Assembly (NCBI GenBank): GCA_963806555.1
Contig: CAWDYR010000016.1
Coordinates: 98,108 to 162,107, forward strand
DNA length: 64,000 nucleotides
Source of the DNA: an uncultured Bacteroidales bacterium
GTDB taxonomy: Bacteria; Bacteroidota; Bacteroidia; Bacteroidales; VadinHA17
Direction of reading: 5' to 3'
Shown: piece after piece, positions 895 through 39,093 of the stretch
How the letters are laid out: each line of letters begins with the position of its first letter
Numbering within the stretch: position 1 is the stretch's first letter
Translations under genes and position numbers: made by a program
The notes under the pieces: generated by a model
Told to the model about the DNA's origin: nothing
Seen by the model: only the letters and a program-made list of their open reading frames with translations
Databases searched by the model: none

Positions 895-1126
895 TGAGGC
901 ACCCCGGCCGGGCAAAGCAGATTGTAGAACTGCTCAAAACCTATAGTCGCAGGCCGAAGCCCTCCCTGAAAAGGGGGCCGAGCGTTAAGAAATCAGCCAG
1001 TGGCTGATTTTAGCGAAGGAGCCAGCCTGCAGGGAAGTATGTGGTGTAGGGGAATTGTAATATATTGCAAATCTGTTACATACAGTTTGATTCATAAGCT
1101 ATCCCATTCCTTAGGATCAGCTATGG
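895..1126 (+). repeat. degenerate partial copy (right half) of the nested-palindrome intergenic element
   Basis: caccccggccgggcaaagcagattgtagaactgctcaaaacctatagtc and attgcaaatctgttacatacagtttgattcataagctatcccattccttagg..ctatgg align with the right halves of the copies at 9578, 20709 and 22986. The CCCCTCC hairpin is degraded and about 50 bp are inserted. Confidence 0.6.
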
Positions 1127-1304
1127 GGGACGGGGGTGAGTACGCTGATCAATCTGCGCGATACAAAAAATACCAACAAATTTCTCCAGGTTATCATTGG
1201 TTAAATTACTTAACATAATCTTCATTAATCGACGAACTGATGAGAAAAGATCCCGGTTTTGTAAAAAGTTATTAACCACGGGCATAGCCTCATCAAAAAA
1301 AACC

Positions 1305-3756
1305 ATGTTTATCCTGGTATTACTGGCAGGTGTTGCTACTTTACATTTTGCCTGCAATAAAACCGAAGATTATCCCAGAAAACCTGACCGTCTTGGATCC
1401 GGCAAAGTCAAGTGGGCGGAATCACTGACTCCGGACGGTTGGACTATGGTAACAAATGAAGACGGGGCTACCCTCGGATATTCAAAGAGCTCCGGACTTC
1501 AGCTTATCCAGGTAGACAGATACGCGTTCAAAGATCTCAACAGGAACAACCTGCTGGATCAATTTGAAGACTGGCGCGTTGACTTTAAAACAAGGGCGGC
1601 AAGCATCGTTAAAGAAATCCCGGTCGATCAGATGATGGGCATGAAAATGAATCCATTCGGTATCGGGAGTGTCAACGCTGATGCACTGGATGATGACATC
1701 AGAAACAGACTGGAAATCGGTTACAGACAGCTGCGGGCACCCGGTTCGAATACCACAGGGAGAGTAAAGGCTTCGTGGAACAACATGGTACAGGAGTACA
1801 TAGAAACGCTTGATAGTATTGTCTGTATTCCTGCGGTCTGGATAGCTGACCCAAGATCAGGAGACGTATCCGACTGGCCGAGCCAACCTTGCTATGGCGG
1901 CAACCTTTGATCCTGAGGTCGGAGCCGAATACGGACGACTGATGTCAGAAGAGTGGCGGGCCATGGGAATATCCATGCAGGTCGCGACACAGATGGACCT
2001 GGCTACGGAACCGCGCTGGAAACGTATCTCCGGTACGTTCGGCGAAGACCCCGCCCTGTCAATGGATATGGCCAGAGCCGTAATTAACGGATGGCAATCT
2101 ACCTACGACACAGCCGGAAATGATCTGGGCTGGGGCGAACACAGTGTGAACAACCAGATGAAGCACTGGCCCGGAGACGGTGCCGCCGAAGGCGGACGCG
2201 AGTCGCATACGCGTGACGGGGCATACAACGTATTCCCGGGCGGTCAGTTCTTCACTCATCTCCTGCCATTTGTTGCATGTATGGACCTGCCGGGCAAGAC
2301 TGAAACGGTAACGGCTGCCATGACGAACTTTTCCGTAGGTATTGAAGCGGATGGTTCGCCGGTTGGTAAAAAGCGTGTCGCCTCAAGCTACAGCCCATAT
2401 AAAATCAATACCGTATTGAGAGGAATGTATGGCTGGGATGGCTATATCCTGACGGACTTCGGGATCATTACAGGCAAGAATTTCGGTGTGGAAGATCTGA
2501 CTCCGGCTGAATGCATGTTAGCGATCCTGGAAGCCGGATGTGATGCCTTCGGCGGTGAGGGCAGATCCGGCAAGGAGGACATTGATCTGGCCATGGAAGC
2601 CTATAAACTCGGGGTTAAGAAGCTCGGCGAAGAAGCAATGAATGAGATAATGAGGCACTCGACCGAAAGAATCCTGAGAACCCACTTCAACATCGGGATA
2701 GTTGACAACCCATATCTCAGCATCGAGAAAGCCGAAACGGTTCCAAACAATGCGGAACACAACGCCCGCGGCTACCAGGCGATGCTCAGATCTGTCGTGA
2801 TGCTGAAGAACAGTGGCGGCATTATTCACAAGGCATCGGCAGGAGCAGGAAAATAGACCGTGTATATCCCCAGGGTGTATTTAGCGGCGACTACCGGGCG
2901 GCAAGCCAGTCCCGCAACAGCCAACCCGGCATTCAATCCCGAAGCAGCCGGAGAGTACTTCAATGTCGTAACTGACGCGCTGGCCGCGAAACTTACAGGC
3001 CCGGCGGATGAAAAGGGCAATCGCACGCTATCGCCAAATGACATCATACGTGCATCTGCAGCAGAAATAGCCAGGTGTGACTTCGCTCTTGTCAGGATAA
3101 CCAGTCCTCAAAACGGGAATCCGACATACATGGGATTCGGAGGTGTTACAACTGACGGCAAGGAATATACATATCTGCCTATTTCACTGCAATATCGTCC
3201 CTACACCGCAAATTCAGAATTCGTGCGTAAGGAGTCTATCGGCGGAGATATGATTGAGGTGACAGAGACATCGCCTGATGGTTATGGCGATATGAAGACA
3301 CTGAAAAAGGAGAATCGCTCATATTTCGGCAAGACCGCAATCATCAGGAATGAAAGTGATCTGGATCTCGTACTGAATGCCGCATCTGCGGCCAAAAAGG
3401 TCATTGTTGCTCTAAACGTGTCAAATCCTATGGTGTTCAGGGAATTTGAGAGCAAGGTCGATGCAATCCTTGTGGGATTCGGTGGTGACAGGTCAGCCTG
3501 GCTGCCCGACAAAGCATTCCTTGAGATTATTGCTGGTCAGGTAGAGCCGTCCGGGCTACTGCCACTTCAAATGCCTGCGAATATGGAGACCGTAGAGGCG
3601 CAATTCGAGGATGTGCCGCGGGATATGAAATGTCATGCTGACAGCGACGGCAACACCTATGACTTTGCATTCGGCCTGAATTGGTCGGGCGTGATCAAAG
3701 ACGACCGCACGGCAAAGTATGATGTTCCTCCGATTGTAGGCGGACCACCTGAATAA
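1305..3756 (+). pseudogene. glycoside hydrolase family 3 (beta-glucosidase/xylosidase-like) lipoprotein, disrupted as assembled
   Basis: Collinear ORFs 1197-1910, 1894-2856 and 2860-3756 together read as a GH3 enzyme. Motifs seen: AATFDPEVGAEYGRLMSEEWRAMGI, EPRWKRISGTFGEDP, KHWPGDG and a C-terminal SGLLPLQMP. A lipoprotein signal MFILVLLAGVATLHFAC starts at ATG 1305. There is one frameshift near 1885-1893 and an in-frame TAG at 2854-2856. Confidence 0.8.
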
Positions 3757-3944
3757 AGGGCCCAAAACCATTAATTCTTGAGAAGTTAAACCTAAATTAC
3801 TTAGCATGAAAAGTTTGGCAAAACCCGGTGTTTTAGGATTACTTGTACTTTCAATTATTTTACATTCATGTAAGAAAGAAATGTGTCTACTTTGCATCCT
3901 TAGCCTTTAAGTCTCTCTCCATTAATCCGTACTTTTTTTCTTTT

Positions 3945-3957
3945 TCGCCGTAGGCGA
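3945..3957. repeat. REP-like hairpin tcgccGTAggcga upstream of the Y1 transposase gene
   Basis: Perfect 5-bp stem with a GTA(G) loop, 125 bp upstream of the RAYT-like ORF. The same design recurs at 3997 and, inverted, at 4607. Confidence 0.55.
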
Positions 3958-3996
3958 TTAATTATTGTAGAAAAACAATCATTATATTAATTTTTT

Positions 3997-4009
3997 ACCG
4001 CGTAGCGGT
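3997..4009. repeat. REP-like hairpin accgcGTAgcggt upstream of the Y1 transposase gene
   Basis: Perfect 5-bp stem around GTA, with the tetranucleotide GTAG spanning the loop and stem. It lies 73 bp upstream of ATG 4082. Confidence 0.55.
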
Positions 4010-4081
4010 TAAACAATTGCTTAGAATTCAGAGAATTATTAAATTTGTTCTAGCTGCATTAGTAATTAAAAAATTCAATCT

Positions 4082-4555
4082 ATGAAGCCTGGAACATTCA
4101 CCCAAATTTATGTTCAGTTGGTATTTGCTGTAAAAAACAGGGAAACCGCGTTAAGAAAGGAAATCAGACCTCATGTATTTGAGTATATGAGTGGAATCCT
4201 GACAAATCAGAAACATAAATCCATTATAATTAATGGACTTTCAAATCATGTCCATATTCTCCTTGGATTGAATCCTTCGATTTCTGTTTCAGATACTGTC
4301 CATGAAGTAAAGAGAAGTTCAACGCTATTTATTAACAGAGAGCGACTCTGCTTTGGCAGATTCTCCTGGCAGGAAGGCTATGGAGCATTCAGTTATAGTC
4401 GTTCGCAAATTTCCAATATTTATAAATATATTGAAAATCAGGAAGAAACTCATAAATTTAAAACTTTTCAAGATGAATATGTTCAATATCTTAAAAAACG
4501 TGAAATGGAATTTGATGAACAATTCTTATATGAATTCTGGGAAAATCCTGTTTAA
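4082..4555 (+). CDS. IS200/IS605-family Y1 (HUH) transposase, REP-associated tyrosine transposase (RAYT)-like
   Basis: Intact 157-aa ORF. It has an HUH-type motif HVHIL and the tyrosine region YKYIENQEETH typical of Y1_Tnp/RAYT proteins. There is no tnpB partner. The gene is visibly more AT-rich than the flanking genes and has small GTAG-loop hairpins on both sides. Confidence 0.8.
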   Translation: MKPGTFTQIYVQLVFAVKNRETALRKEIRPHVFEYMSGILTNQKHKSIIINGLSNHVHILLGLNPSISVSDTVHEVKRSSTLFINRERLCFGRFSWQEGYGAFSYSRSQISNIYKYIENQEETHKFKTFQDEYVQYLKKREMEFDEQFLYEFWENPV

Positions 4556-4606
4556 CCTCTTCGAGGTAATAAAACCATTTTTAATATCTCCGGCTACAAT
4601 AGTTTA

Positions 4607-4619
4607 AGCCCTACGGGCT
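4607..4619. repeat. REP-like hairpin agcccTACgggct downstream of the Y1 transposase gene (inverted relative to the upstream pair)
   Basis: Perfect 5-bp stem. The CTAC loop is the reverse complement of the GTAG loops at 3945 and 3997. It lies 52 bp after the stop codon. Confidence 0.55.
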
Positions 4620-4639
4620 AGGTTTAACCCCTGCTGGAG

Positions 4640-4712
4640 GCATGTGGTGGAGGGGAAATTTATGTTACTGAAATTCAATTGCATACAGTTAGATTCATAA
4701 GTTTCCCTATTC
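4640..4712 (+). repeat. solo right-arm fragment of the nested-palindrome element
   Basis: gcatgtggtggaggggaaatttatgttactgaaattcaattgcatacagttagattcataagtttccctattccttaag matches the right arm (ggaggggaaatgtaa..ttgcatacagtt.gattcataagcta.cccattccttagg) of the full copies. It shares the gYatgtggtgKagggga variant with the copy at 1040. Confidence 0.6.
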
Positions 4713-4854
4713 CTTAAGATCGCACATAACATGTTAGTGCCAAATAAAAAAGCAAATATATTCCCTTAATATTATGATTATAAAAAAAGTCCGCTTACTT
4801 TTGCGGCTCGTTAAAGTACTCCATTTAGCGATGGATGCAGGATGGTATGTTTTT

Positions 4855-4891
4855 CGGGGTGTAGCGCTCCCGATAGCAACTGGTTTGGTTC
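4855..4891 (+). repeat. decayed copy of the 5' half of tRNA-Pro
   Basis: cggggtgtagcgctcccgatagcaactggtttggttc repeats the acceptor-5', D-arm and anticodon-stem sequence of the tRNA that starts 20 bp downstream. It has mismatches and no 3' half. Confidence 0.6.
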
Positions 4892-4910
4892 TTAATATAT
4901 AATAGATATA

Positions 4911-5334
<424 letters not shown>

Positions 5335-5598
5335 CCTAAAGAAACGCAGTCAGCAATAAATCAGTTGATTGCGTTTTTATTTATATGACAATTTCCCCAC
5401 TAAGTCCCCATAAGGCTAAATAATCGTTAAAAATCCGCCTTTTCTTAGCACAAACTCGGCCTTTTAATTCCGGGATCTGCTCCTTAACGATGGCAGTTCC
5501 ATGCCCTAATCACTTATCAACGCAAATTAAAAACACTCCAAAAGTTCTTTTTTACCGGGTTATTATAAGGTAGAGTTGCGAATAATCAAAAAAAAACC

Positions 5599-5606
5599 TA
5601 CATTTG
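5599..5606 (+). promoter_or_regulatory. candidate Bacteroidota sigma-A -7 box (TAcaTTTG)
   Basis: It matches the TAnnTTTG consensus and lies 24 bp upstream of ATG 5630. Confidence 0.4.
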
Positions 5607-5629
5607 CAACAGTACATTAAGACACAACC

Positions 5630-5803
5630 ATGGAATCGAAGCAAATTACATTATTGACTGTTTTGGCAAAAAAAATCAGGACAGAAAAGAAAGACAAAGC
5701 CAGGGTTGTTGCAACATTGCGATCAGCAAAAATTTTAACTAAAGGTGGTAATTTTACAACACATTTTAGTACCTTAAATAAGCTAGTCACATCCTCTAAA
5801 TAA
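5630..5803 (+). CDS. 57-aa basic protein, first gene of a coupled two-gene cassette (candidate antitoxin/regulator)
   Basis: The ORF ATG 5630 to TAA 5801-5803 reads MESKQITLLTVLAKKIRTEKKDKARVVATLRSAKILTKGGNFTTHFSTLNKLVTSSK. It is below the ORF-track size cutoff. Its stop overlaps the next start (TAATG). Confidence 0.45.
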   Translation: MESKQITLLTVLAKKIRTEKKDKARVVATLRSAKILTKGGNFTTHFSTLNKLVTSSK

Positions 5804-6435: not shown

Positions 6436-6743
6436 TTGCCGTGTAGAACCAAGATAATAATGATCAATTGATGGACATGACTTTGTATATTTCTTCACCG
6501 GGAGAGCTTAACTTTGAATAGTATAACATGCCGAGGAAGAAAAAGAATCACTATTTATGGCCCAGGTATGCAACTTGTGGGTTTTCATTTTGAAGTTAGC
6601 GGTCCTAGATCAAGACAGTGACCGTACTCTTGTTCAGTTGTTTAAATGAAGGTCTAATCCTTAATACAGCGAACAGAAAAGCCATCAACTTTATCATTAG
6701 GGCCAAACGAAGTTAAAAAGCCTTGCACGAAGTGCCTGGTTGA

Positions 6744-9275: not shown

Positions 9276-9577
9276 AAGCAGTCTTTCACAGGTCCGAATT
9301 CTCGAATTTAATCAACAGGATCATCAGGTTATTTAAATAACAAAGTCAGGGACGAACTGGTAATATTTGACAAACATTGACACTGACCTTGTTTATTAAC
9401 TGCCAGTAATATTAGAAACGATAAGTTGCCCCGATTATTACACTAATTGGCGGTATTCATGGCCCTTTTTGACGAATGGAAGAAGAGGAGAGGAAGTTTA
9501 AGTCTTATTTCCTGACTGCAATCAGGAGTCCGGGGTAGCTTACCCCCAAAGGGCTTGACCCCCAAACCCCCCGAGGG

Positions 9578-9936
9578 CATAGCCGTCAACCTAAGAACCA
9601 GTTTTGGACTGGTAATTATTTAATTAGCTGAGACACAATTAAATAAGTTTCCCCTCCTTTTGAAGGAGGGGTGGCCAGACGGTAAAATCATATCACAGAC
9701 AGAAACTAAATTCGTCTGGCCGGGGTGGTTGATTCAAGTATTTCTCACTACCTTTCAAATGGATAGACTTGAAACATAAATTAACCACCCCGGCCGGGAA
9801 AACAGATTGTAAACCACTCAAAATCTATAGTCCCGGCCACCCCTCCTTGAAAAGGAGGGGAAATGTAAATTATTGCAACTCAGTTGCATACAGTTCGATT
9901 CATAAGCTATCCCATTCTTTAGGTTGATGGCTATGG
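9578..9936 (+). repeat. nested-palindrome intergenic element, full copy A (MITE-like)
   Basis: It starts with catagccgtcaacctaagaa and ends with ttctttaggttgatggctatgg, which form inverted termini. It contains the six-hairpin series described for copy D. The outer boundary is uncertain because C-rich tracts abut both ends. Confidence 0.8.
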
Positions 9937-9975
9937 GTCCCCCTCCGGGGAGAAAATTCAGTATAATAAAAAGGA

Positions 9976-11173
9976 TTAGTTCTTTACGGTTTGGGAGATC
10001 TTTCCTGTTGCCTTGTTTTTAAGGATCAGCTTAACTGTGCCATCCGGCATTGTTTCTTCCTTTACAAGGAAATGATCCTTGTCAAAATCACGGATGGCGC
10101 TGATCTTCTCTGTTTTTTCCCGTCCCCGCCAGGTTTTCAAGCTTCACCGGTTCCCATTTTTTTGATCTGGCAGAACGGAAGCATGCATCCATTATCTCAT
10201 TTACGATATAGCCGTCATAGAAGGTTTCGCATTGGCTGGATCTTTTTTTCAAATGCATTGAACATATCGGTAAACATGTCGGTATAACCAAGTTCCACAA
10301 CTTCATCCCCTACCGGGAAAAGCCAGCCTTTTTCGGTCTCTGCTTTTTCAGCAACATAACCTGTTTTCCCGCCGGCTGTAAACATTTCAAAACCCGTCCT
10401 CAGAAAATTATTAACCCAGATCGTGCCTTCTGTTCCCATGACTTCATCACGGAGATCCATGCCGCCCCGGAATGTCCAGCTTACTTCAAACTGTCCGATA
10501 GCGCCGTTTTCATACCTTACCCATCCAAGAGCGTTATCCTCAGCTTCAATTGGTTTTACAAGGGTATCAGCCCAGCACATCACCTCAACAGGTTTAATGT
10601 CTTTACCTATATAGCTTCGGCTGATCTCAATACAATGACAGCCCATATCCAGCAACACACCTCCTCCCGATATTTCTTTTGTCCAGAACCAGTCGCTGTG
10701 CGGTCCGGGATGTGTTTCACGCGACCTGTGCCCATGTAACCTGCCCTACAGCTCCCATGCCGACAGATTTTAGTGCCTTCAGTGTTTTCGGTGTATAGAC
10801 CAGATCTTCAAGATAGCCGTGCATAACGCCCGCCTTTTCAACAAGGTCAAGCATCTCTTTTGCCTCGGCCGCGTTCCTTCCAAGAGGTTTTGTACAGAAT
10901 ACCGCCTTTCCGGCTGCTACGGCAAGTCTTACAGCTTCAAGATGCAGGTTATTCGGCAGTCCTATTACCACAACGTCAACTTCAGGATCATTTACGGCAT
11001 CTTTCATTGAGGTGGTCCATTTCGGGATCGAGTGCTTTTTTGCAAAAGCTTTCCCCCTTGCCTTCATCACGTGAATAAATAACATGCACTTTATCACGGT
11101 TCCGGTGACCGTTAATCGAAAATGTGTAAAAATCGCCGATGAAACCGGCGCCCAGCATTGCAACTTTAGCCAT
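9976..11173 (-). pseudogene. Gfo/Idh/MocA-family NAD(P)-dependent oxidoreductase, at least 4 frameshifts as assembled
   Basis: The N-terminal Rossmann motif [16 protein letters not shown] (10988-11173) continues through ORFs 10717-11163, 10215-10658 and 10088-10306. A fifth frame ends ...KATGKISQTVKN* at 9976. Confidence 0.75.
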
Positions 11174-11713: not shown

Positions 11714-12755
11714 ATGAAAAAAACACTTTTTATCCTGACAATTCTTTTAATCCTGATCAGCTGGCAGTGTTCAAAGATTGATCAGTCAAAAAGAAATCAT
11801 ACAGTAAAGGAATCGATCGAAAACAGCATCGCCGAGATTAATACTGCAATCGATAAGATCTCTGGTTCTATTGGGTATAGCCTGCTTTCTCTATCCGAAG
11901 CCGGTGCAAAATCGGAAACCGGATTTCAGGACAGCATCGACCTTGATCTTATAGCCGGAATCTATGAGTTCAGTCCTGATACCGATTTGCGTCCGCATCA
12001 ATTTTTCCCCTATAGACTTTTCAAAAGAACAGGCAACAGCAATAACCTCGAGGTTAATCTGCCCGAACAGATGGTTTTACATCCAAAACGTCTTCATTTT
12101 TACATAGTAAGCGATCACGGTCCCTGAAAACAATTTCAAAATAACAGCAACAGGTTATCATTTTTATTATAACTGGTGGCATACTTATGATTATAATCTC
12201 GAAGCCGGCTTTATTCTCGATGGAGAAGATGCCGGAAACATGAAAACTTCATCTGCCTGGAAGTCCTCTTCAGAACGTAATTATTTAAACAGCTTTACAT
12301 TTCCCGAAGGATACACTCTTCTGAGAAGCGGACAGACAGGCAATCCTGCCCGGTTTATATTTGCTCTTGCCAAGGGCAATGATACCCTGCTGAAGGAAAC
12401 CCTTGCCTTCTCCGGTGATGGTTTCAACAGGAAAGAAAAGCAATATATCCTGTCGGTCGGGGACGTTGATATAAAAAGAGCAACAGGGATTGACTCAATC
12501 CAGGTTTATCTTAACGGGGTGCTGCAGAAAAAGGCAGGAGCTAAAATCATGTACGAGGCTGATTATGAAGCATCTATCTTCAGCAGGAGGGATATACTCC
12601 TCACCTTTGACGATGGTACACAGGCAAAGCTCAGCGAGTTGATCTCACCGGCTCTCGAAACTCTAAAAACCCTCTCCCGCTCACTTGAAGAAATGTATTT
12701 TTCAAAACACATTGTTGACTATATTGCCCTCAACATATACTATAGCAAACAGTAA
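11714..12755 (+). pseudogene. hypothetical lipoprotein, one frameshift near 12100-12126
   Basis: The signal MKKTLFILTILLILISWQCS starts at 11714. ORF 11654-12127 continues without stops in the frame of ORF 12240-12755 from 12126 onward. I recognise no family. Confidence 0.5.
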
Positions 12756-12815
12756 GTGTTGGAAGGCCAAAATTCGCCCATACGGTTGCCACCGCACCTC
12801 ATTGAAGGGCAGGGG

Positions 12816-13066
12816 CATAGTTATCAACCTAAGGAATACGATAGGCTACGAGTCAAACTATATACAACTGATATACAATATGTACATTTCCCCTCCTTTC
12901 AAGGAGGGGTGGCCGGGACAGAGATTTTGAGAGATTTACAATTTACTTTCCCGGCCGGGGTGGTTAATCTATGTTTCATGACTCTAATCTTGTTAAAGAG
13001 GTGTTTACTATCAATTTGAATAAAGGGAATAAGAAAGGTTTGAACCAACCACCCCGGCCAGACGAA
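12816..13066 (-). repeat. nested-palindrome element, copy B (reverse orientation, internally deleted)
   Basis: catagttatcaacctaaggaa...catttcccctcctttcaaggaggggtggccggg...ccggccggggtggttaatc...aaccaccccggccagacgaat, then about 110 bp are missing. A short terminal remnant (gcttgccc) and G tracts follow up to about 13100. Confidence 0.75.
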
Positions 13067-13314
13067 TAAGATCACGCTTGCCCTTGGGGGGGCAGGGGTG
13101 TGTTAAAACGATATTCATATTGCATATTTCGCTTCACTGAGGTTGACATCAGGTCAATAATAATTCGTTTTCCAGATTTACTTCACTAAACCATCCGGAA
13201 CTTTTCACCCTTCGAGTTGTTTTATAAGAAACCAAATCACGGAAAAATGATTGCCTGTTTTTTTCCTGAATTATCCCGACACATTTAATCAATAACCATA
13301 AATTAATTACTTCC

Positions 13315-14292
13315 ATGATAAGCTTAAAAACAAAGTATATGGGACTGGACCTTAAAAATCCGGTGATCGTAGGTGCAAATGATCTGATAACAAATCCTGA
13401 CAACCTGAAAAGAATTGAGGATCAGGGCGCCGGCGGCAATTGTTTACAAATCGCTGTTTGAAGAGCAGATCCAACTTGAAAATCTGGAAATGTTTGAGCT
13501 TAAAACTGAATATGAGGAACGGAATGCGGAAATGATCACTCTTTTTCCCGAATTCAAATCAGGAATACAGTTATCCTGTTCAGCACTTAATGAAACTTAA
13601 AAAAGCAAAGGAATCGGTTTCGATACCGGTTTTCGCAAGCCTGAATGCAGTAAATGATGATACCTGGATTGAATATGCCAGAGAGATTGAAAAGACGGGA
13701 GTTGACGGACTGGAGCTCAACTTTTACACTCTTCCTGAAAAGTCGGATGACAATTATGAAGATATGGAAGCGAAGCAGTTAAAGACACTGATGAAAGTCA
13801 GGGCGGCAGTGAAAATACCACTCTCTGTGAAACTTAGTCCTTATTACACTAATCCGCTTAAATTCATTTCGGAACTTGAAGCATGCCGGAGCAAATGCGA
13901 TTCGTCCTCTTCAACAGGCTTTTTCAACCCGACATCGACATCGAAACCGAAAAGCATCACTTCCCGTACAGTCTGAGCCATCCGGAAGATCACAGACTGC
14001 CTTTAAGGTTTGCAGGATTGCTGTACGGAAACACCGAAAGCCTCCATCTGCACAAGTTCGGGGATATTCAGCGGTCAGCGACGTTATCAAAATGATGCTG
14101 GCAGGCGCTGATTGCGTTCAGGTTGTGAGCACCCTTTACCTGCACCAGATAGAGGTGCTTGGATCGATAATCAGCGATATTGAAAAATGGATGGTGGAAA
14201 AGGGATACGATACTATCGACAGCTTCAGGGGGAAATTGTCAAAGAACAAAGTCGGAAGACAAGATCCCGTACTCCCGCGCTCAATATATTGA
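13315..14292 (+). pseudogene. dihydroorotate dehydrogenase-like (PyrD/PreA-fold) protein, several frameshifts
   Basis: MISLKTKYMGLDLKNPVIVGANDL...GAG(A)IVYKSLFEEQI starts at ATG 13315. It continues through ORFs 13415-13600, 13590-13976, 13883-14095 and 13876-14292 (..MLAGADCVQVVSTLY..). A paralogue lies at 39135-40112. Confidence 0.7.
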
Positions 14293-14363
14293 TTTCAAAC
14301 TAAGCACATCTGCAATCCTGAAGAAATATAAAGCCATCAATTGAGATTTCTCTGAAGAACTTA

Positions 14364-14505
14364 CACAGAGGTCCACTGAGAAGACACAGAGGTCCACAGA
14401 GAGAATTTTATCAGGCTGAAGCCAGACTCTGTGGAACTCTGTGTATCCTCTGTGGAACTCTGTGTAATGTTTCTTTTATGAAAACTTTCACAGAGGTCCA
14501 CAGAG
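14364..14505. repeat. array of five 17-mers CACAGAGGTCCACAGAG (2 forward, 2 reverse, 1 forward) between convergent genes
   Basis: The copies lie at 14364, 14385 (forward), 14427, 14448 (reverse, CTCTGTGGAACTCTGTG) and 14489 (forward). The last copy ends one base before the feoB stop codon. The array can fold into a long hairpin. Confidence 0.85.
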
Positions 14506-14506
14506 A

Positions 14507-20654: not shown

Positions 20655-20708
20655 CAGGAACTAAGCCCCCTGCCCCTCTCTGGCTTCATGTACTCACCCC
20701 CCCTGCCC

Positions 20709-21073
20709 CATGGCTGTCGGCTTAAGAATAAGTTTTAGACTAAGAATTATTTAATTAGCTGAAATACAATTAAATAACTTTCCCCTCCTTTTAAAGGAGG
20801 GGTGGCCAGACGTGAAATCATCTTACAGGCTGAAATTAAATTCGTCTGGCCGGGGTGGTTGATTTAAGTCTTTCTTATCAAGAAGTTTTTTCAAGCAAGC
20901 TTAGAATTTTGAAACATAGATTAACCACCCCGGCCGGGAAAGCGAATAGTAACCGTTTAAAAGTCAATCGGCCCGGCCACCCCTCCTTGAGAAGGAGGGG
21001 AAATGTAATATATTGAATATCTGTTATATACAGTCTGATTTAGAAGCTATCCTATTTTTTTAGATTGGCTATG
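20709..21073 (+). repeat. nested-palindrome element, full copy C
   Basis: It has the same module order as copies A and D. The sequence is catggctgtcggcttaagaa...tttcccctccttttaaaggaggggtggccagacg...cgtctggccggggtggtt...aaccaccccggccggg...cccggccacccctccttgagaaggagggg...gattggctatg. It lies between two convergent genes. Confidence 0.8.
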
Positions 21074-21109
21074 CTCCCCGCCCCCTCTCTACTTTGTGAC
21101 AGTAATTTC

Positions 21110-22823: not shown

Positions 22824-22985
22824 GCCAGGTTATTTTATTCATCTAATTTAACTGATTTAAGTTACAATGCATCGGCTATTAAGAATTTCGGATTGCGGAG
22901 GCTGTATCAACACGCGACCTCCTGAACCGGCGCTTATATAGATTATGCCTCTTCCACCGGGAAAGGGGATAAAAGGAGTGCGGTG

Positions 22986-23341
22986 CATAGCCAAAGAGTC
23001 AATTTTAATCTGAGGATTATTTAATTAGCTGAAACACAATTAAATAACTTTCCCCTCCTTTTGAAGGAGGGGTGGCCAGACGGTGAAATCATCTCACACG
23101 CAGAAACTAAATTCGTCTGGCCGGGGTGGTTGATTCAAGTCTTTTTTTATTACTTATATTCTAATGGATAGACTTGAAACATAGATTAACCACCCCGGCC
23201 GGGAAAACAGATTGTAAACTCCTCAAAATCTATAGTCCCGGCCACCCCTCCTTGAAAAGGAGGGGAAATGTAAAATATTGCAAATCTGTTACATACAGTT
23301 TGATTCATAAGCTAACCCATTCCTTAGGTTGACGGCTATGG
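22986..23341 (+). repeat. nested-palindrome element, full copy D (best preserved; reference for hairpin coordinates)
   Basis: Six hairpins are seen. H1 is 23017-23047 (ttatttaatt/aattaaataa). H2 is 23052-23072 (cccctcc/ggagggg). H3 is 23076-23120 (ccagacg/cgtctgg). H4 is 23121-23198 (ccggggtggtt..ttcaagtc/gacttgaa..aaccaccccgg). H5 is 23199-23241 (ccggg/cccgg). H6 is 23245-23265 (cccctcc/ggagggg). The right arm runs to ggctatgg at 23341. Confidence 0.85.
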
Positions 23342-23430
23342 CGAATAGGGGGTGATTTTGTGCAAAGGGGATTAATCTATATAAGTGCCCCTGAACCCCT
23401 CCCAAAGAGGCTGTCTAAAAATTCCTTTTT

Positions 23431-32795: not shown

Positions 32796-32806
32796 CCGTT
32801 GATTCT

Positions 32807-33644: not shown

Positions 33645-33752
33645 AGCTCTCTCTTTTTAAAGGTTTAAAGAGTAGAGTTGTTGAATAGGCAATCCAGGTT
33701 TTTGGTTAATAATGAGTACAAAGAAAAACAAATTTTTTTAATATGAAAGTAT

Positions 33753-33760
33753 TACTTTTG
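33753..33760 (+). promoter_or_regulatory. candidate -7 box TActTTTG upstream of uvrA
   Basis: TAnnTTTG match 42 bp before ATG 33802. Confidence 0.35.
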
Positions 33761-33801
33761 ATTTTTTACGAAAATTTTAAAAAAAAGTTTCAAAATCAGT
33801 T

Positions 33802-36596
33802 ATGGAAGGGAATATTGAGATCAGGGGAGCAAGGGTTCATAATCTGAAAAATATAAGTCTCAGCATACCAAGAAACAGGTTTATTGTAATTACGGGAGTT
33901 TCAGGATCGGGGAAATCTTCTCTTGCTTTCGATACAATTTATGCCGAAGGGCAGAGAAGGTATGTTGAGAGTCTCTCATCGTATGCGCGTCAATTTCTGG
34001 GCAGGATGAATAAACCTGAAGTCGATTTTATAAACGGGATCCCTCCTGCCATTGCAATAGAACAGAAGGTAAATTCGCGGAATCCGCGGTCAACAGTCGG
34101 AACTTCAACAGAGATCTATGATTATCTGAGGCTTTTGTATGCGAGGATCGGCAGGACATTTTCACCTGTTTCGGGAAAAGAGGTTAAGCGTCACAGCGCC
34201 GACGACCTCGTCAACTACCTTACATCCCTGCCGGAAGGTACAAAAGTGGTTATAACCTCACCCGGGAGCATCCCTGAAACCATTAAAATGCAGGAATACT
34301 TTTCATTTCTTGTAAAACAGGGGTTCAACCGGCTGGAGGAAAACGGTGAACTGATCAGGATTGACGGCCCGGTTGATGAACACAAGTTCAGTCCCTGCCA
34401 GAAGGTTAATATTGTCATCGACCGGCTGGTGACCAGCAATGATTCAGATAACATGAGCCGGTCAGCCGATTCAGCCCAGACCGCTTTTCAAACGGGTAAA
34501 GGACATTGCCAGGCTGTTGTTTTTGGAGACAACGGGTTGACAAGAGAAAATTTCTCTGTCAAATTTGAAGAAGATGGAATTGAATTTGAAGAACCGTCAG
34601 AATACTTTTTCAGTTTTAACAATCCCATTGGTGCATGTCCGGTTTGTGAAGGATATGGAAAAATTATAGGTATAGATGAGAATCTTGTAATACCCGACCA
34701 GAATCTTTCTGTCTTTCAGGATGCCATTGCCTGCTGGAAAGGGGAATCGATGAAAAAATGGAAAGAGCGTCTGGTATCAAGCGCCGACCTGTTTGACTTC
34801 CCGGTACATAAACCGTACTATCAGCTTACCGATGAGCAGAAAGAGCTTATCTGGAAGGGGAACAGGTATTTTTACGGGCTGAACCGGTTCTTTGAACATC
34901 TCGAAGAAAAGAAATACAAGATCCAGTACAGGGTTCTGCTGAGCCGTTACCGGGGCAAGACGATCTGTCCGGAATGCAAAGGGAGCAGGCTGAGAAAAGA
35001 GACATCGTATGTAAAGGTATCGGGAAGGACAATACAGGAGCTTGTATCCCTTCCGGTAGGAAGGTTTTACTCACTTCTCGCGGATATTGAGCTGACGGAG
35101 GCGGAGGCAAAAATCGCGGAACGGCTTCTCAAAGAGATCAGCCAGAGGTTGAAATTCCTTATCGATGTGGGTCTCTCCTATCTTACTCTTAACCGGCTGT
35201 CATCATCCTTATCAGGGGGAGAATCACAGCGGATAAACCTTGCAACTTCGCTCGGAAGCAACCTGGTGGGATCGATGTATATTCTTGATGAACCGAGCAT
35301 CGGCCTTCATCCGCGTGATACAAATCTTCTTGTAAAAGTTCTTAAGGAGCTCAGGGATCTTGGGAATTCGGTTCTTGTTGTTGAACATGAAGAGGAAATA
35401 ATAAGGGCGGCCGATGAGATAATCGATATGGGCCCTGAAGCCGGACGGCTTGGCGGTGAAGTTGTATTCCAGGGGGGCACTGACTTTTCTGAAAATAACC
35501 GTTCTCTTAACGGCATCCTACCTTAGCGGCAGGATGGCGGTAAAAGTCCCTGCCATACGAAGAAAATGGCATAGTTTTATCGAGATAAAGGGAGCAAGGG
35601 AGAACAATCTTAAAAACATAGATGTAAAATTTCCTCTGCATACCATTACGGCTGTAACAGGGGTGAGCGGATCAGGCAAATCAAGCCTCGTCACCGATAT
35701 TCTTTATAATGCCTTGTCGAACAGGATAAACGGGAACAACCTGAAACCGGGTCAGTTCCGTGAAATAACGGGTGATGTCTCAAGGCTAACCGGCATCGAG
35801 CTTGTTGATCAGAATCCCATCGGGAAATCGAGCCGGTCGAATCCGGTGACTTATATCAAGGCGTATGATGAGATAAGGAAGCTTTTTGCAGAGCAGCAGG
35901 CATCGGTACAGAATAATTTCAGAGCATCTCATTTCTCATTTAATATTGATGGCGGGAGATGCGAAGAGTGCCAGGGTGAAGGCATCATAAGGGTTGAGAT
36001 GCAGTTTATGGCCGATGTTGAGCTGACCTGCGAAAGCTGTAAGGGCATGCGGTTCAAGAGGGAGATACTTGAGGTCAGATATCACGGTAAGAATATATAT
36101 GACATGCTCGAGATGACAATTGATGAAGCCATTGAATTCTTTGAAAGTCACCCGGGGAAAAATGAAAAGAGAATTATTGAAAAGCTTAAGCCGCTTGCTG
36201 ATGTCGGACTGGGTTATATCAAGATGGGGCAGTCATCGAGCACATTGTCAGGCGGGGAAAGCCAAAGGGTTAAGCTTGCATACTTTCTGAGCCAGGAAAA
36301 GGGATCGGGTCATATCCTGTTCATCTTTGACGAACCTACAACCGGGCTTCATTTTCATGATATCAACAAGCTGCTCAAATCAATCAATGCACTTGTGGAT
36401 CATGGTCATTCCGTAATACTTATCGAACATAACCAGGAAGTTATTAAGTGCTGCCGACTGGGTTATAGATCTTGGTCCGGAGGGTGGAGAGGAAGGCGGA
36501 TACGTGGTTTTTGAAGGTAAACCTGAGGATCTGGCAAAAAACAGGAAATCTTATACAGGGCATTTCCTGGCGCCGAAACTGAAAAAAAACACATAG
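33802..36596 (+). pseudogene. uvrA: excinuclease ABC subunit A, at least 2 frameshifts
   Basis: The motifs IRGARVHNLKNI, GVSGSGKSSLAFDT, a second GVSGSGKSSL and LSGGESQR twice are present. The shift at the G6 run 35472-35477 is repaired by removing one G. A second shift lies near 36449-36455. The true end ..[14 protein letters not shown] is at 36594-36596. Confidence 0.92.
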
Positions 36597-36616
36597 GAAC
36601 GTTGATGCAATTATTC

Positions 36617-37060
36617 CTATTGTTTTATTTTGAATCCGAACATAATTGAAACACACCCGCTTGCAGGAGTAACCTCCTGTTTTGTTGAGGTATTGACTTT
36701 CATAACTATGCGGAGCTGCTGGCTTGACTGAAGCTTAAAATCCCAGATGCCTGAAAAGTTTGAATCTTTGTTGGAATAAAGGACATTCTTATTTGCATCG
36801 AGAACCGTAATTTCAATACCCGGCAGCATTTCGTCACAGCATATTGCAAGACGGTATTCCATATCGGAATAGAAAGTTTTAAACAGTTCAGCCTCTTCAC
36901 CTTCAACAAGAACTGCTGCGTGATAATTCCCGTCGTGGATGTAGGATCCAAGTTCAGGAAGACAGGTTTTTTTGGCAAAGGTCTTGCACTGGCCATTAAC
37001 ATTAAGGCCGGAAAAAATCAAAAATAGAACCAGTATTGAAAAAGTCCTGAATATTTTCAT
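36617..37060 (-). CDS. hypothetical secreted protein (147 aa, Cys-containing)
   Basis: Intact ORF with the signal peptide MKIFRTFSILVLFLIFSGLNVNG. I recognise no family. Confidence 0.5.
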   Translation of the reverse strand: MKIFRTFSILVLFLIFSGLNVNGQCKTFAKKTCLPELGSYIHDGNYHAAVLVEGEEAELFKTFYSDMEYRLAICCDEMLPGIEITVLDANKNVLYSNKDSNFSGIWDFKLQSSQQLRIVMKVNTSTKQEVTPASGCVSIMFGFKIKQ

Positions 37061-37159
37061 TATTATTTGATTTTGTTTTTATGTTATGATCGAATCAGCA
37101 TGGTTGCGGCATCCTGAGCTTTTCAATCCGACATCGGCATACCATGCAGGTTAAATATG

Positions 37160-38080
37160 CTATTTGACGAAGCTGTTCCTTATCTCACCGACAACAGTTG
37201 CGAGCTCTTTAAATACTTCCGGGGTAAGATCTGCCTGCACTTCTGATTTCAGGACCGTGACATTGGTAGTCTTATCGTATTCGGGTCTGATTGGTGTTGT
37301 TTTCAGGGTTATCTTATCAAATACAGTCTTAACTCTGGCTACCTGTGCCAGAAGCTCATCTATGGCGGGATTTCCCTTGCTGTCTCCCAGAAGGTTGATA
37401 AGAATATCAACTGAAAGTTTCTGATCAATGATCCTTCCTACTAGTTTGTTACCATTGAAATCCTTCATATCGATAAGCTGGGTGGAGATGTAGAGGCCTT
37501 CCATCCATCCGCCTGTAAGAACGATGGCTGCAATTGCGGGCTGGCCATTATCCTCGAGATAGGAATTTGAATTAAGGTATGTCTGGGAAACAATATCCAT
37601 TATAACCTCAGTGTCATGAATATTCTGTTCCAGTCTGTCGATATCTTCCTGCAGGATAGCATCAAGGATACCCAGACCGTCCGCCATCTTTTTTGCGGCA
37701 TTCATGTAGTTGATTATAAGCTGTGTCTGATCGTACAGGCTGGCGAAACTCAGATCGCATGTATAAATACCAAGATTGAGCGCCATGCTCTTATTGGTAT
37801 TGTAGTTTTTTGTGTTTTCGACAGGATTCAGAAGCTTGTCATCGAATAAAGCTCCGGCAGATTTAATGAGCATAGCAGATTCGAGTGGGGAAGGAAGAGT
37901 ATAGAAGATGGTCTCTGCTTTCTTTATTTCATCATAAATAGCGGCATTATTCTTTGACACATCCAAAGAATCTGCTTCTTTTTTTGTGCCTTTACCGCCC
38001 GAATTGCAGCTTGAAAGAATTAATGCGAACAGAATTGTCATTGCCAGAACACGGTTGGTAGTTAGAAGAAGTTTATTCAT
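37160..38080 (-). CDS. hypothetical lipoprotein (306 aa)
   Basis: Intact ORF with the lipoprotein signal ILFALILSSCNSGG. I recognise no family. Confidence 0.55.
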   Translation of the reverse strand: MNKLLLTTNRVLAMTILFALILSSCNSGGKGTKKEADSLDVSKNNAAIYDEIKKAETIFYTLPSPLESAMLIKSAGALFDDKLLNPVENTKNYNTNKSMALNLGIYTCDLSFASLYDQTQLIINYMNAAKKMADGLGILDAILQEDIDRLEQNIHDTEVIMDIVSQTYLNSNSYLEDNGQPAIAAIVLTGGWMEGLYISTQLIDMKDFNGNKLVGRIIDQKLSVDILINLLGDSKGNPAIDELLAQVARVKTVFDKITLKTTPIRPEYDKTTNVTVLKSEVQADLTPEVFKELATVVGEIRNSFVK

Positions 38081-38176
38081 TTTCGAGGTTTTTTTAAGAT
38101 TCTCTGTGTAATCAGTGCTAAATTAGTACATTATTTTTATTTATCAATAACGCTAAAATCTAATAAATGGTATTTC

Positions 38177-38184
38177 TAACTTTG
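38177..38184 (+). promoter_or_regulatory. candidate -7 box TAacTTTG
   Basis: TAnnTTTG match 17 bp before ATG 38201. Confidence 0.4.
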
Positions 38185-38200
38185 TAACAAATAATTACAA

Positions 38201-38716
38201 ATGATCAGATCTGAAAAAAGACTTAAGGAGCTTGCTCTCGTTTTGGACAGGGATAATCCCCTGCAGATAGAGGATGCGATTGAAGTTCTAAGGAACACCC
38301 AGCCTTTCGAAGGCGCCATAGGTCTGTTGATCTCATACTTTAACAGAAGCGATAATTCGTCAATAAGGAAAGAGATTACAAATTTTATGAATGACCTTAA
38401 AGATCAGGCGGCATGCCGGGAGGTGATGGAGGAGATAAAGAAGAAGATACTTCCCGACACTCTCAGAATGTTAGTCTCATCGTGCTGGCAGTCGGGTCTG
38501 GATTATGCGGCTTTCTCAGCCGACTTTGCAGGCATATTTCTTTTTACGGAGGATTATATGACTGCAGTTGAATGTTTTACCGTAATCGAGTCGTCAGCCC
38601 AAAATTTGACGCGAAAAGAGAAAGATGAGATCATCAGAATTATAACGGAGGGCTCTGCCCTGAGGTCGGAGGAAATGACAGCCCTGGAAACTGAACTCAT
38701 TTCCGTTTTAAAGTAA
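38201..38716 (+). CDS. hypothetical cytoplasmic helical protein (171 aa)
   Basis: Intact ORF with no signal peptide and a helical-repeat-like composition. I recognise no family. Confidence 0.5.
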   Translation: MIRSEKRLKELALVLDRDNPLQIEDAIEVLRNTQPFEGAIGLLISYFNRSDNSSIRKEITNFMNDLKDQAACREVMEEIKKKILPDTLRMLVSSCWQSGLDYAAFSADFAGIFLFTEDYMTAVECFTVIESSAQNLTRKEKDEIIRIITEGSALRSEEMTALETELISVLK

Positions 38717-38731
38717 GAAGGGGGATTCGGT

Positions 38732-39093
38732 CCATAGCTGCATCTTAAGGAATGCCATGGCTTATAAATACAACTGTATACCACTGAGTTGCAATAGATT
38801 TTACATTTCCCCTCCTTTTCAAGGAGGGGTGGCCGGGACTAAACATTTTGAGGGGTTTACAATTTGTTTTCCCGGCCGGGGTGGTTAATCTATGTTTAAA
38901 GTCTATCCAATTGAAAAAAGGTAATAAGAAAGACTTGAATCAACCACCCCGGCCAGACGAATTTAGACTCTGCGTGAGATATGATTTCACCGTCTGGCCA
39001 CCCCTCCTTCAAAAGGAGGGGAAACTTATTTAATTGTACTTCAGCTAATTAAATAATTATCATTCTAAAACTGATTCTTAGGATCGGCAATGG
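38732..39093 (-). repeat. nested-palindrome element, full copy E (reverse orientation)
   Basis: The reverse complement aligns end to end with copies A, C and D. The plus-strand sequence reads ccatagctgcatcttaaggaa...catttcccctccttttcaaggaggggtggccggg...aaccaccccggccagacg...cgtctggccacccctccttcaaaaggagggg...aattaaataa...ggcaatgg. It lies between convergent genes. Confidence 0.8.

Follow-up and report, generated by a model that had tools for sequence, protein, structure and literature searches.

Palindromic intergenic repeats of an uncultured Bacteroidales bacterium are gene-less derivatives of a compact element carrying a DUF559 nuclease gene

The window analyzed here, 64,000 nucleotides from an uncultured Bacteroidales genome, holds several copies of a ~360-nt palindromic element lying between genes, which raises the question of what these repeats are, whether they move, and what could move them. 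A reading of the sequence alone had counted four complete copies, a fifth with an internal deletion, and two fragments of the right arm, all intergenic and without a cognate transposase in the window. This inventory was borne out by an nhmmer search with a profile of the four complete copies, by concordant repeat finding and alignment, and by the positions of open reading frames (ORFs), and no partner enzyme was found in the window.

Copies in the window and constraint on their stems

From end to end, the element consists of a terminal inverted repeat (TIR), an AT-rich arm, hairpin H2 (CCCCTCC..GGAGGGG), H3, GGGGTGGTT, the gene where present, AACCACCCC, H5, H6, a second arm, and the opposite TIR. 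In the coding form, about 30 nt and then a 123- to 125-aa DUF559 gene lie between GGGGTGGTT and AACCACCCC, so that the gene occupies the loop of the central hairpin, H4. The TIRs (CATAGCCGTCAACYTAAG and CTTARGTTGACGGCTATG) are 18 to 20 bp long, with both ends covarying between subfamilies, and the termini are of the CATAGCCGTCAAC..TTAAG type. The copies, together with a separate IS200-like unit, are as follows.

891..1127, + strand: fragment F, right half (nhmmer matches 891-977 and 1048-1127), comprising the H4 3' strand, H5, H6, right arm, and right terminus
3926..4636, + strand: IS200-like unit of ~711 bp, separate from the element, with Y1 tnpA at 4082-4555 and hairpins CGCCGTAGGCG and ACCGCGTAGCGGT at the left end and AGCCCTACGGGCT at the right end
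4627..4720, + strand: fragment G, right arm (nhmmer E 1e-12), adjoining the right end of the IS200-like unit
9578..9936, + strand: copy A, full, gene-less (nhmmer match 9577-9939, E 2e-127); termini CATAGCCGTCAACCTAAGAA and TTCTTTAGGTTGATGGCTATG; H2 9651-9671, H3 9673-9721, H4 9722-9791, H5 9792-9838, H6 9840-9860; remnant of the DUF559 start codon (ATGGATA) at 9759-9765
12816..13081, - strand: copy B, internally deleted (nhmmer match 13067-12813, E 3e-56; envelope 13081-12811)
20709..21073, + strand: copy C, full, gene-less (nhmmer match 20708-21077, E 2e-117), in the convergent spacer that separates a BamB-like gene from cdaA; H2 20782-20802, H4 20852-20931, H6 20980-21000
22980..23341, + strand: copy D, full, gene-less (nhmmer match 22980-23342, E 3e-128), in the divergent folP-tmk spacer; ATG remnant at 23164-23170
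38732..39093, - strand: copy E, full, gene-less (nhmmer match 39092-38729, E 2e-126), in a convergent spacer

These copies and fragments ranged from 94 to 365 nt and totaled about 2.0 kb, or 3.2% of the window. None of them contained an intact element ORF, and the only ORFs overlapping any copy (12685-12930 and 12756-13019) both read through copy B itself. Copy B had previously been delimited at 12816-13066; the copy is real, but its right limit lies at about 13081. As read from the sequence, its degenerate left terminus (CAAGCGTGATCTTA) is fused directly to the H3 3' strand, and comparison with the gene-carrying locus L141 revealed that its H4 loop retains DUF559 codons 1 to 10 (ATTGATAGTAAACACCTCTTTAAC) and the last ~15 nt of the gene. 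Nested in the H6 loop of fragment F (973-1046) is a 74-nt mini-insert, of which 19 copies with 77 to 100% identity were found across the window and the fetched loci.

Every copy matched its own reverse complement, indicating that the entire element is palindromic, and the predicted fold was very stable on both strands (fold z-scores of -15 and -13). Among 16 copies from four genomes, pairwise identity was 96% in the stems and 65% elsewhere, with the termini being the least conserved part (47 to 49%). Thus, the hairpin stems hardly vary, in contrast to the drifting loops, arms, and termini, which strongly bears out the earlier impression that stems are alike and loops differ. Moreover, the terminal stem of H3/H5 was kept (mean of 6.3 bp versus 0.7 bp in shuffles) across 13 different stem sequences. 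The stem identity, together with the intact stems of the copy E orthologues described below, supports constraint on the stems and hence the selection on structure that had been suspected. The weakness of the termini would be odd if they were the substrate of an enzyme.

Insertion, target sites, and inversion of the center

Comparison of filled and empty sites revealed that two ~93%-identical relatives (L079 and L080), and also L078, have no copy D in the orthologous spacer. The inserted segment is 464 nt long (22929..23392, + strand) and contains copy D, with outer 17-bp inverted termini (GGCRCTTATATAGATTA) and a flanking 8-bp target site duplication (CCTGAACC). This insertion represents another family of small elements, with which copy D is nested, and a second copy of its outer termini occurs in L011 (4331-4544). 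In the window, only this composite has a clean duplication; none was seen for copies A, C, and E, and the GGGCAGGGG pair around copy B, formerly proposed as a target duplication, is not clean and was rejected, as the left GGGCAGGGG lies 8 nt from the true left end of B. Related copies, in turn, showed target duplications of 8 to 10 bp, and their sites were the loops of C5-6 N4 G5-6 hairpins. Exact direct repeats of at least 7 nt flanked 5 of the 22 complete elements, with 0.09 expected and none of 2,000 permutations reaching 5. These results confirmed that the element family is mobile, non-autonomous in the window, and intergenic, and showed that it inserts between genes, preferring loops of C-run/G-run hairpins, with 8- to 10-bp duplications. 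Such a preference explains the G/C tracts that had been noticed next to most element termini.

Many genes are split in these assemblies, which therefore probably contain nanopore homopolymer errors, and these would blur junctions within G/C runs. The related genomes also hold other families of miniature inverted-repeat transposable elements (MITEs) with 8- and 9-bp duplications.

Recent spread had been suggested earlier, but spread was not only recent: MAG MFD02809.bin.2.7 (L035), whose flanking DNA is ~91% identical, carries a copy at the site of copy E. In L035, the center (H3-H4-H5) is inverted relative to the arms: copy E and the L035 center were 79% identical in inverted alignment and 55% in direct alignment, while H2 and H6 were identical at 20 of 21 and 21 of 21 positions, respectively. 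The stems of this orthologous pair are intact and the arms are 64 to 81% identical. H2 and H6 form 30-nt inverted repeats, and the element center lying between them can therefore flip. In total, the element occupied at least 40 loci in three related MAGs, while ~110 kb from more distant relatives contained no copies, with compact spacers at the corresponding loci.

A gene-carrying form encoding a Vsr-like nuclease

The same element occurs in a sister genome and in metagenomes in a form of ~725 nt that carries a 123- to 125-aa DUF559 gene (PF04480, a Vsr-like nuclease). A search for longer elements sharing the termini, as the sequence-only reading had proposed, identified relatives (L210, L141, and L123, each ~725 nt), but their sole gene is DUF559, which is not a known transposase. 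The center of copy A aligned end to end with L141 except for one clean ~370-nt deletion of the gene. In addition, tblastn with the L141 ORF detected intact genes or remnants within the H4 loops of many copies, and the loops of gene-less copies held differing coding remnants (residues 1 to 25, 26 to 58, 28 to 72, or both gene ends), which fits independent deletions rather than empty sites. The ~360-nt repeats of the window are thus shown to be non-autonomous, gene-less derivatives of the compact ~725-nt element, from which the gene was deleted.

No intact DUF559 copy was present in the 64-kb window or in the fetched loci of the closest relative. MAG MFD00905.bin.1.196, by comparison, contained at least four intact gene copies at unrelated loci, and dN/dS was 0.13 to 0.34 among three of its loci (L207, L208, and L210) and L211 from another metagenome. 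Judging from these ratios, the dispersed gene is functional and under purifying selection. The arrangement of TIR, arm, hairpins, and DUF559 was kept in lineages whose proteins are only ~70 to 76% identical (L141, L123, and L210).

DUF559 is very common in bacteria and has a structure solved; to our knowledge, no role has been assigned to the family. Seven ORFs matched the Pfam DUF559 family (E 1e-28 to 1e-34), and PDB entry 3HRL was matched in sequence (E 6e-22). An AlphaFold model (pLDDT 79) resembled 3HRL (TM-score 0.85), the catalytic domain of I-Bth0305I (3R3P; Foldseek E 3e-5, TM-score 0.79) and, more weakly, Vsr (1VSR; E 0.03), with R2 also among the weak fold matches (E 0.03). D56, E67, D69, and H73 were invariant in the alignment. 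We infer that the protein is a nuclease of the Vsr-like PD-(D/E)XK type; among solved structures, a homing endonuclease catalytic domain ranks second in closeness to it. At 123 to 125 aa, it amounts to the catalytic domain alone, with no obvious DNA-binding or strand-transfer domain.

Beyond this lineage, a 26-nt H6 motif was found, among the matches listed, in metagenome contigs of 34 to 71% GC, and in contigs of 40 to 66% GC, DUF559 genes are flanked by these hairpins. A full or partial DUF559 gene lay within 900 nt in 25 of 53 informative loci, and gene-less modules outnumbered gene-carrying ones in every GC class. In high-GC relatives, the gene and the hairpin module occur without arms or TIRs, and their mode of spread may differ. 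We found no earlier description of the element in the searchable literature or in Rfam; with Rfam 15, the window gave only tRNA-Pro, and nothing meaningful was matched on copy A or on five gene-carrying elements.

Candidate enzymes and significance

Which enzyme moves the element? Our preferred explanation, to which we assign a probability of roughly 60%, is that the repeats are gene-less derivatives of the DUF559 element and that DUF559 acts in trans, cutting targets and recognizing stems, targets, or both. The protein would be supplied from intact copies elsewhere in the genome, would recognize the sequence-conserved stems (H2, H4, and H6) and/or the palindromic C-run/G-run targets, and would make staggered cuts yielding the 8- to 10-bp duplications. 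Spread would then be limited to elements whose stems are intact, and this would account for near-invariant stems beside decaying loops, arms, and gene remnants. On this reading, the DUF559 nuclease would itself move the element. We know of no precedent for a 123-aa nuclease without a DNA-binding or strand-transfer domain as a sole transposase.

Alternatively, a DDE-type transposase may act in trans on a TIR-bounded element in which DUF559 is cargo (e.g., a repair, addiction, or anti-restriction nuclease) and the conserved hairpins serve that gene itself as regulatory structures, terminators, or protein-binding sites. TIRs and duplications of 8 to 10 bp are the classic signature of DDE transposases, and both are present here, the TIRs being 18 to 20 bp; other MITE families with 8- and 9-bp duplications share the genomes, and the high-GC relatives that keep gene and hairpins without arms or TIRs indicate that the two layers are separable. 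We nevertheless consider this unlikely. Across roughly 1.2 Mb of related loci (the relevant genomes being read as ~8-kb pieces), no longer element with these termini was found: TIR pairs more than ~0.9 kb apart never delimited a single longer element, the wider pairs being separate neighboring copies. The DDE-type autonomous partner expected earlier found no support in these loci, where the only longer relatives sharing the termini encode the DUF559 nuclease. Moreover, the conserved arrangement at ~70 to 76% protein identity, combined with purifying selection, is unexpected for dispensable cargo, and conservation is lower in the TIRs than in the internal stems.

It is quite improbable that the order of events was reversed, with a free-standing DUF559 homing endonuclease gene invading the central loop of an older REP- or MITE-like hairpin repeat and the gene-less form being ancestral. 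The closest solved relatives do include a homing endonuclease (PMC3239194), some copies have very short H4 loops (e.g., L021 and L049), and gene-less modules are the commoner form in all GC classes; the differing coding remnants in gene-less loops, however, argue against this order, as does the 13-bp inverted repeat of H4, which brackets the gene in every lineage seen.

Also highly improbable is the suggestion that the repeats are structured RNA or DNA serving the host (a terminator, insulator, or protein-binding site), selected at each locus, with mobility incidental or extinct. The intact stems of the gene-less copy E orthologues amid diverging arms and loops, the stable fold on both strands, and the strictly intergenic placement, convergent spacers included, would suit such a role. 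Against it stand the presence/absence variation between ~93%-identical genomes, the target duplications, the compact, copy-free spacers of the next relatives, the lack of an Rfam family match, and the equal frequency of G-T and T-G pairs, which gives no sign of one transcribed strand.

Scarcely credible is a REPIN/PATE-like hairpin repeat moved by the Y1 (HUH) enzyme at 4082-4555 or by a related RAYT (REP-associated tyrosine transposase): fragment G directly adjoins the Y1 unit, Y1 enzymes act on hairpins, and L044 carries a second Y1/RAYT-like gene flanked by CCGCCTTGAAAGGCGG hairpins with a loop resembling that of H6, but the tnpA (Pfam Y1_Tnp E 2e-24; NCBIfam IS200 60 bits, cutoff 55) belongs to its own ~711-bp unit, whose ends and hairpins (GTAG/CTAC type) are unrelated to the element and which moves on its own (a 92%-identical copy nested in a different MITE in L036 and a tnpA-deleted copy in L038, both in different surroundings), Y1 transposition does not produce TIRs with 8- to 10-bp duplications, and the gene found inside the element is DUF559.

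The DUF559 element shares features with several known systems. Like the MITEs Correia, Nezha, and RUP, the repeats are ~360 nt long, non-coding, multicopy, intergenic, and able to fold back, with TIRs and target duplications; they nest into one another and are deletion derivatives of a longer coding element with shared ends. Unlike in MITEs, the longer partner encodes a 123-aa Vsr-like PD-(D/E)XK nuclease (DUF559) rather than a DDE transposase, conservation is highest in the internal hairpin stems and not at the termini, and these stems are found again across phyla, in contigs of 34 to 71% GC among the matches listed. REPIN and PATE are small hairpin repeats moved by Y1 transposases, and the IS200/IS605-PATE and RAYT/REPIN systems are likewise very small, with one small nuclease-type gene, conserved cis-acting hairpins, and abundant gene-less hairpin derivatives, those of REPIN being inverted doublets; they differ in using Y1 HUH enzymes without TIRs or duplications, whereas PD-(D/E)XK, TIRs, and duplications occur here. 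For PD-(D/E)XK cutting in transposition, TnsA of Tn7 and the restriction-like endonuclease domain of R2 retrotransposons are precedents, although each acts alongside another catalytic partner (the DDE protein TnsB and a reverse transcriptase, respectively) and the ~725-nt element has no second gene. The EDxHD/Vsr-like homing endonuclease I-Bth0305I shares the nuclease fold, and both are nucleases of selfish elements. I-Bth0305I, however, has an N-terminal NUMOD/HTH DNA-binding region, resides within a group I intron, and homes to one allelic site only, whereas DUF559 here is a bare catalytic domain in a TIR-bounded element with many dispersed intergenic sites, duplications, and gene-less copies. 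I-Bth0305I is active as a dimer and its target is pseudo-palindromic (PMC3239194), which parallels the palindromic C-run/G-run targets of this element.

For annotation, the repeats are a hazard: they create spurious ORFs (e.g., "PLLFKEGWP"), break short-read assemblies, and could pass for structured RNA genes. Their spread explains the bloated intergenic DNA of this Bacteroidales lineage compared with its relatives. In an earlier statistical analysis, DUF559 genes were enriched in predicted programmed inversions (PMC9881135), an enrichment explained by the position of the gene between 30-nt inverted hairpin repeats and by the flipping of this central part between orthologues. These findings point to a possible role of DUF559, a large family of unknown function, in DNA mobility, and make this role testable through binding and cutting of the hairpins by the nuclease and mobilization of a marked mini-element. 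Tentatively, the DUF559 proteins of this lineage may be the mobility enzymes of a previously unrecognized class of very small fold-back transposable elements spread across bacterial phyla, in which a single ~123-aa Vsr-like PD-(D/E)XK gene would be enclosed by hairpin-bearing inverted repeats and gene-less hairpin derivatives would be shed, able to fill intergenic DNA. If true, this would provide a function for a large unknown family and a new enzyme type in prokaryotic transposition.

Copies of the element and their conserved stems

Copies of the ~360-nt palindromic element were located by repeat search, by a seven-way alignment and with nhmmer, whose profile came from the four full copies (these score E 1e-117 to 1e-128), and every copy proposed in the sequence-only reading was recovered.

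Element copies in the window (nhmmer coordinates)
9577-9939, + strand, full copy A
20708-21077, + strand, full copy C
22980-23342, + strand, full copy D
38729-39092, - strand, full copy E
12813-13067, - strand, deleted copy B
891-977 plus 1048-1127, right-arm fragment F
4627-4720, right-arm fragment G

All of these copies sit between ORFs, as had been claimed, and each matches its own reverse complement, while the element folds far better than shuffled sequence on both strands (z = -15 and -13). The termini are of the type CATAGCCGTCAAC..TTAAG. PKD domains together with a CHU_C type IX secretion signal in a neighbouring protein place the host in Bacteroidota. Rfam, searched at the gathering score and at permissive E-values with the window, copy A and five gene-carrying elements, gave no matching family.

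In an alignment of 16 copies from four genomes, the stems CCCCTCC/GGAGGGG (hairpins H2 and H6) and GGGGTGGTT/AACCACCCC (central hairpin H4), along with those of H3 and H5, were invariant or nearly so. Pairwise identity was 96% in the stems versus 65% elsewhere, in line with the earlier impression of similar stems and variable loops; the termini were the least conserved part (47-49%), and the central H4 loop varied in length between roughly 5 and 110 nt and came in unrelated sequence types. Partial copies broke in hairpin loops. Across 163 distinct segments, the terminal stem of H3/H5 averaged 6.3 bp, compared with 0.7 bp in shuffles, and was built from 13 different sequences, indicating that H3 and H5 are conserved as structures and H2, H4 and H6 as sequences. 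G-T and T-G pairs in H3/H5 numbered 6 versus 5, giving no strand bias in this RNA test, which is weak because it pools the strands.

Several other repeats were observed. A 74-nt mini-insert (GGGGGCCGAGCGTTAAGAAATCAGCCAGTGGCTGATTTTAGCG...GTGGTG) at 973-1046 had 18 more copies in the loci fetched from related genomes or metagenome contigs (L-numbers; e.g., L005 3221-3293 and L210 1828-1902), lying within the H2 or H6 loop in the copies read, gene-carrying ones included; it could itself be a nested mobile unit of even smaller size. Two copies of CCCCNACCCCTCCGAGGAGGGGAGCCGAAGAG (47262-47315 and 50129-50182) form a hairpin with the CCCCTCC/GGAGGGG stem of H2 and H6, and a tandem 68-nt repeat at 45035-45170 contains the palindrome CCTGCCTGCCGGCAGGCAGG. 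After the tRNA-Pro gene at 4911-4986 come two or three ~175-nt units in tandem (region 4911-5334; repeats D6 and D7), each consisting of the tRNA 3' end AATCCTGCCACCCCGAC and a terminator-like hairpin; they resemble a scar left by tandem duplication or by integration at the tRNA. The window ends in a long imperfect tandem array (63570-63900; 8-nt unit GGAGCGAG/GGAGCGAT, about 26 registers), and L005 and L071 have comparable C/T-rich simple repeats on the flanks of element copies. Finally, many genes of the window, among them the conserved GH3, GFO/IDH/MocA, dihydroorotate dehydrogenase-like (DHO_dh) and FeoB genes, are split into adjacent ORFs (1197-3756, 10215-11163, 13590-14292 and 14361-16884), suggesting homopolymer errors of long-read assembly rather than true pseudogenes; exact G/C-run lengths in the window are thus not to be trusted.

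Distribution, targets and inversion

An exact 18-mer from the H3/H4 junction was searched in a species-representative genome collection, and the real matches among those listed all came from three Microflora Danica MAGs labelled "uncultured Bacteroidales" (at least 16, at least 16 and at least 8 loci). Copy E was present at the orthologous site in L035 (MFD02809.bin.2.7; ~91% identical to window 34675-42610). Empty and filled sites could be compared at the folP-tmk spacer, reached in three relatives via FolP homologues: the stretch 22929-23392 was absent from L079 (GCA_049283055.1) and L080, both ~93% identical to the window, and the L078 spacer likewise lacked copy D. The empty site in L079 and L080 reads ..GACCTGCCGAACCCCTCC.., and the window insertion is bordered on both sides by CCTGAACC, an 8-bp duplication. 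Since this 464-nt insertion has 17-bp termini of its own (GGCRCTTATATAGATTA) and encloses the 363-nt copy D between outer parts at 22929-22979 and 23343-23392, two small TIR elements are nested here, copy D and a second one. A 214-nt element in L011 (4331-4544) also ends in GGCRCTTATATAGATTA and has only these termini in common with the insertion. In more distant relatives (PKD protein 85-88% identical), gene order was the same, spacers were very short, and no element copy occurred across ~110 kb. The copy A site lacked the copy in its sole comparison, a more distant relative (PKD protein 88% identical), and at the copy C site the relative's DNA 3' of cdaA was not alignable to the window. The family is thus limited to one lineage and varies in presence between close genomes, but it is also partly old, because copy E is shared with L035; its spread is not solely recent.

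Exact direct repeats of at least 7 nt lay right at the termini in 5 of 22 non-redundant complete elements (CCCTTCAGG, CCTTTGAAGG, CCCGTCTT, GGGTATAG and GACGGGG), and in several further elements the flanking repeats differed by one base. Permuted pairings of left and right flanks gave a mean of 0.09, and five was reached in 0 of 2000 permutations. The duplicated target is usually the loop and inner stem of a C5-6 N4 G5-6 hairpin, and hairpins of the CCCCCC-TTCA-GGGGGG type are the preferred targets. Hairpin loops are thus favoured for insertion of this element family, which accounts for the G/C tracts noticed at the termini and for the GGGCAGGGG pair near copy B, a target context rather than a clean target-site duplication. 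The same hairpin family flanks another DUF559 lineage (L134 4252-4620 and flanks). Around the L134 gene the hairpins read CCCCCC-TTCA-GGGGGG-CAGGGGGG, also seen in L006 (4028-4102) and L078 (9684-9758), and two MAGs share, without any difference, a 75-nt repeat composed of hairpins of this kind.

The element centre can invert. Copy E and its L035 orthologue have collinear arms and an inverted H3-H4-H5 centre (79% identity inverted versus 55% direct), and the L141 centre is likewise flipped relative to the window copies, which agrees with a published finding that predicted programmed inversions are enriched in DUF559 genes (PMC9881135).

A DUF559 gene in the central hairpin

Metagenome contigs were scanned with the 26-nt H6 hairpin GGCCACCCCTCCTTGARAAGGAGGGG, and at least 120 stretches matched, on contigs of 34-71% GC; all matches listed had the module (A)ACCACCCCGGCC - hairpin - GGCCACCCCTCCTTGAAAAGGAGGGG in common. 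Clustering of nearby ORFs yielded one recurrent protein, DUF559 (PF04480, E 1e-28 to 1e-34), a Vsr-like nuclease homologous to PDB 3HRL (E 6e-22). For its AlphaFold model (pLDDT 79), the first structural match was 3HRL, followed by the I-Bth0305I homing endonuclease catalytic domain (E 3e-5, TM-score 0.79) and by Vsr. Among PADLOC defence-system profiles, matches were limited to DpdF and a methyl-directed restriction-enzyme model, and were weak and partial.

In low-GC contigs and MAG MFD00905.bin.1.196, the H4 loop was the exact site of the gene, and the element was typical in all other respects, with the layout TIR-arm-H2-H3-GGGGTGGTT-[~30 nt + ATG...stop]-AACCACCCC-H5-H6-arm-TIR and a total of about 725 nt (L141, L123, L210). 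The centre of copy A aligned end to end with L141 except for one ~370-nt deletion, running from codon 3 (ATGGATA|) to 8 nt ahead of the stop codon; copy B retained codons 1-10 and the last ~15 nt, and the unrelated H4-loop types of other copies were different leftovers of this one gene (residues 1-25, 26-58 or 28-72). No DUF559 coding sequence was found in the window. The window repeats derive, by loss of the gene, from a TIR-bounded element that carries DUF559 and duplicates its target. At least four intact dispersed gene copies occur in MFD00905.bin.1.196 (L006, L207, L208, L210), and dN/dS of 0.13-0.34 among L207, L208, L210 and L211 indicates that the protein is under selection.

In high-GC contigs (L091 430-700; L131; L090), a gene-less H4'-H5-H6 module recurs in tandem with a 67-nt period, several per contig, behaving as a REP-type repeat in unrelated phyla.

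Candidate mobility enzymes

We infer, with a probability of roughly 0.4, that the element is moved by the DUF559 nuclease provided in trans. Recognition by this enzyme would involve the palindromic targets, the conserved stems or both, and its cuts would be symmetric and staggered. The main rival, a less probable one, is that the TIR layer is moved by a DDE transposase not seen here, with DUF559 as cargo. The proposed search for a longer element sharing the termini yielded the ~725-nt form and no larger autonomous element, in that no TIR pair more than ~0.9 kb apart formed a single longer one, and the genes after the half-copies in L037 and L011 were ordinary host ones (YqeY, ABC transporter, amylase).

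Two minor alternatives concern the gene and the repeats themselves. A homing gene may have invaded a pre-existing repeat; the known homing enzymes of introns and inteins include Vsr-like nucleases (PMC3239194, PMC3424549), but the H4 loops contain gene leftovers of several kinds, which points to independent deletions instead. The repeats may instead be a host-serving structured element; copy E and its L035 orthologue keep intact stems with arms only 64-81% identical, although neither has the gene, which favours this reading, but the polymorphism of the family between close genomes speaks against it. The last alternative, also minor, that the Y1 transposase mobilises the repeats, is rejected, as the enzyme belongs to a ~711-bp unit with its own ends and independent movement, linked to the 360-nt element solely by adjacency.

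The IS200-like unit and a MITE family
3926-4636 (window), self-contained IS200-like unit with Y1 tnpA at 4082-4555 (Pfam Y1_Tnp E 2e-24; NCBIfam IS200 above cut-off)
L036 4560-5480, MITE with termini CTAATCTTTATACACA and 9-bp duplications
L069 6600-7045, same family
L054 1020-1710, same family
L070 2925-3525, same family

The IS200-like unit has flanking GTAG/CTAC-type hairpins of its own, and a 92%-identical copy in L036 and a tnpA-deleted copy in L038 are nested in a different MITE (CTAATCTTTATACACA termini, 9-bp duplication). This MITE is inserted there into the TTGAAAAGG loop of H2 or H6, and such repeated insertion makes the hairpin loops shared landing pads. Its family contains Y1 gene remnants and many small GAAA-loop hairpins. 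In L044 (6640-7300), a divergent Y1/RAYT-like gene precedes three tandem CTCCCTACACCGCCTTGAAAGGCGGAG hairpins, a classic RAYT-REP arrangement within the same genomes.

MITEs are well known. Searches of Rfam and of the searchable literature, including that on DUF559, on Vsr-like proteins with mobile or inverted-repeat elements and on EDxHD, turned up no account of a free-standing DUF559 gene within conserved hairpin inverted repeats that is TIR-bounded, duplicates its target and sheds gene-less copies. If the DUF559 nuclease does move the element, it would represent a new type of transposase.
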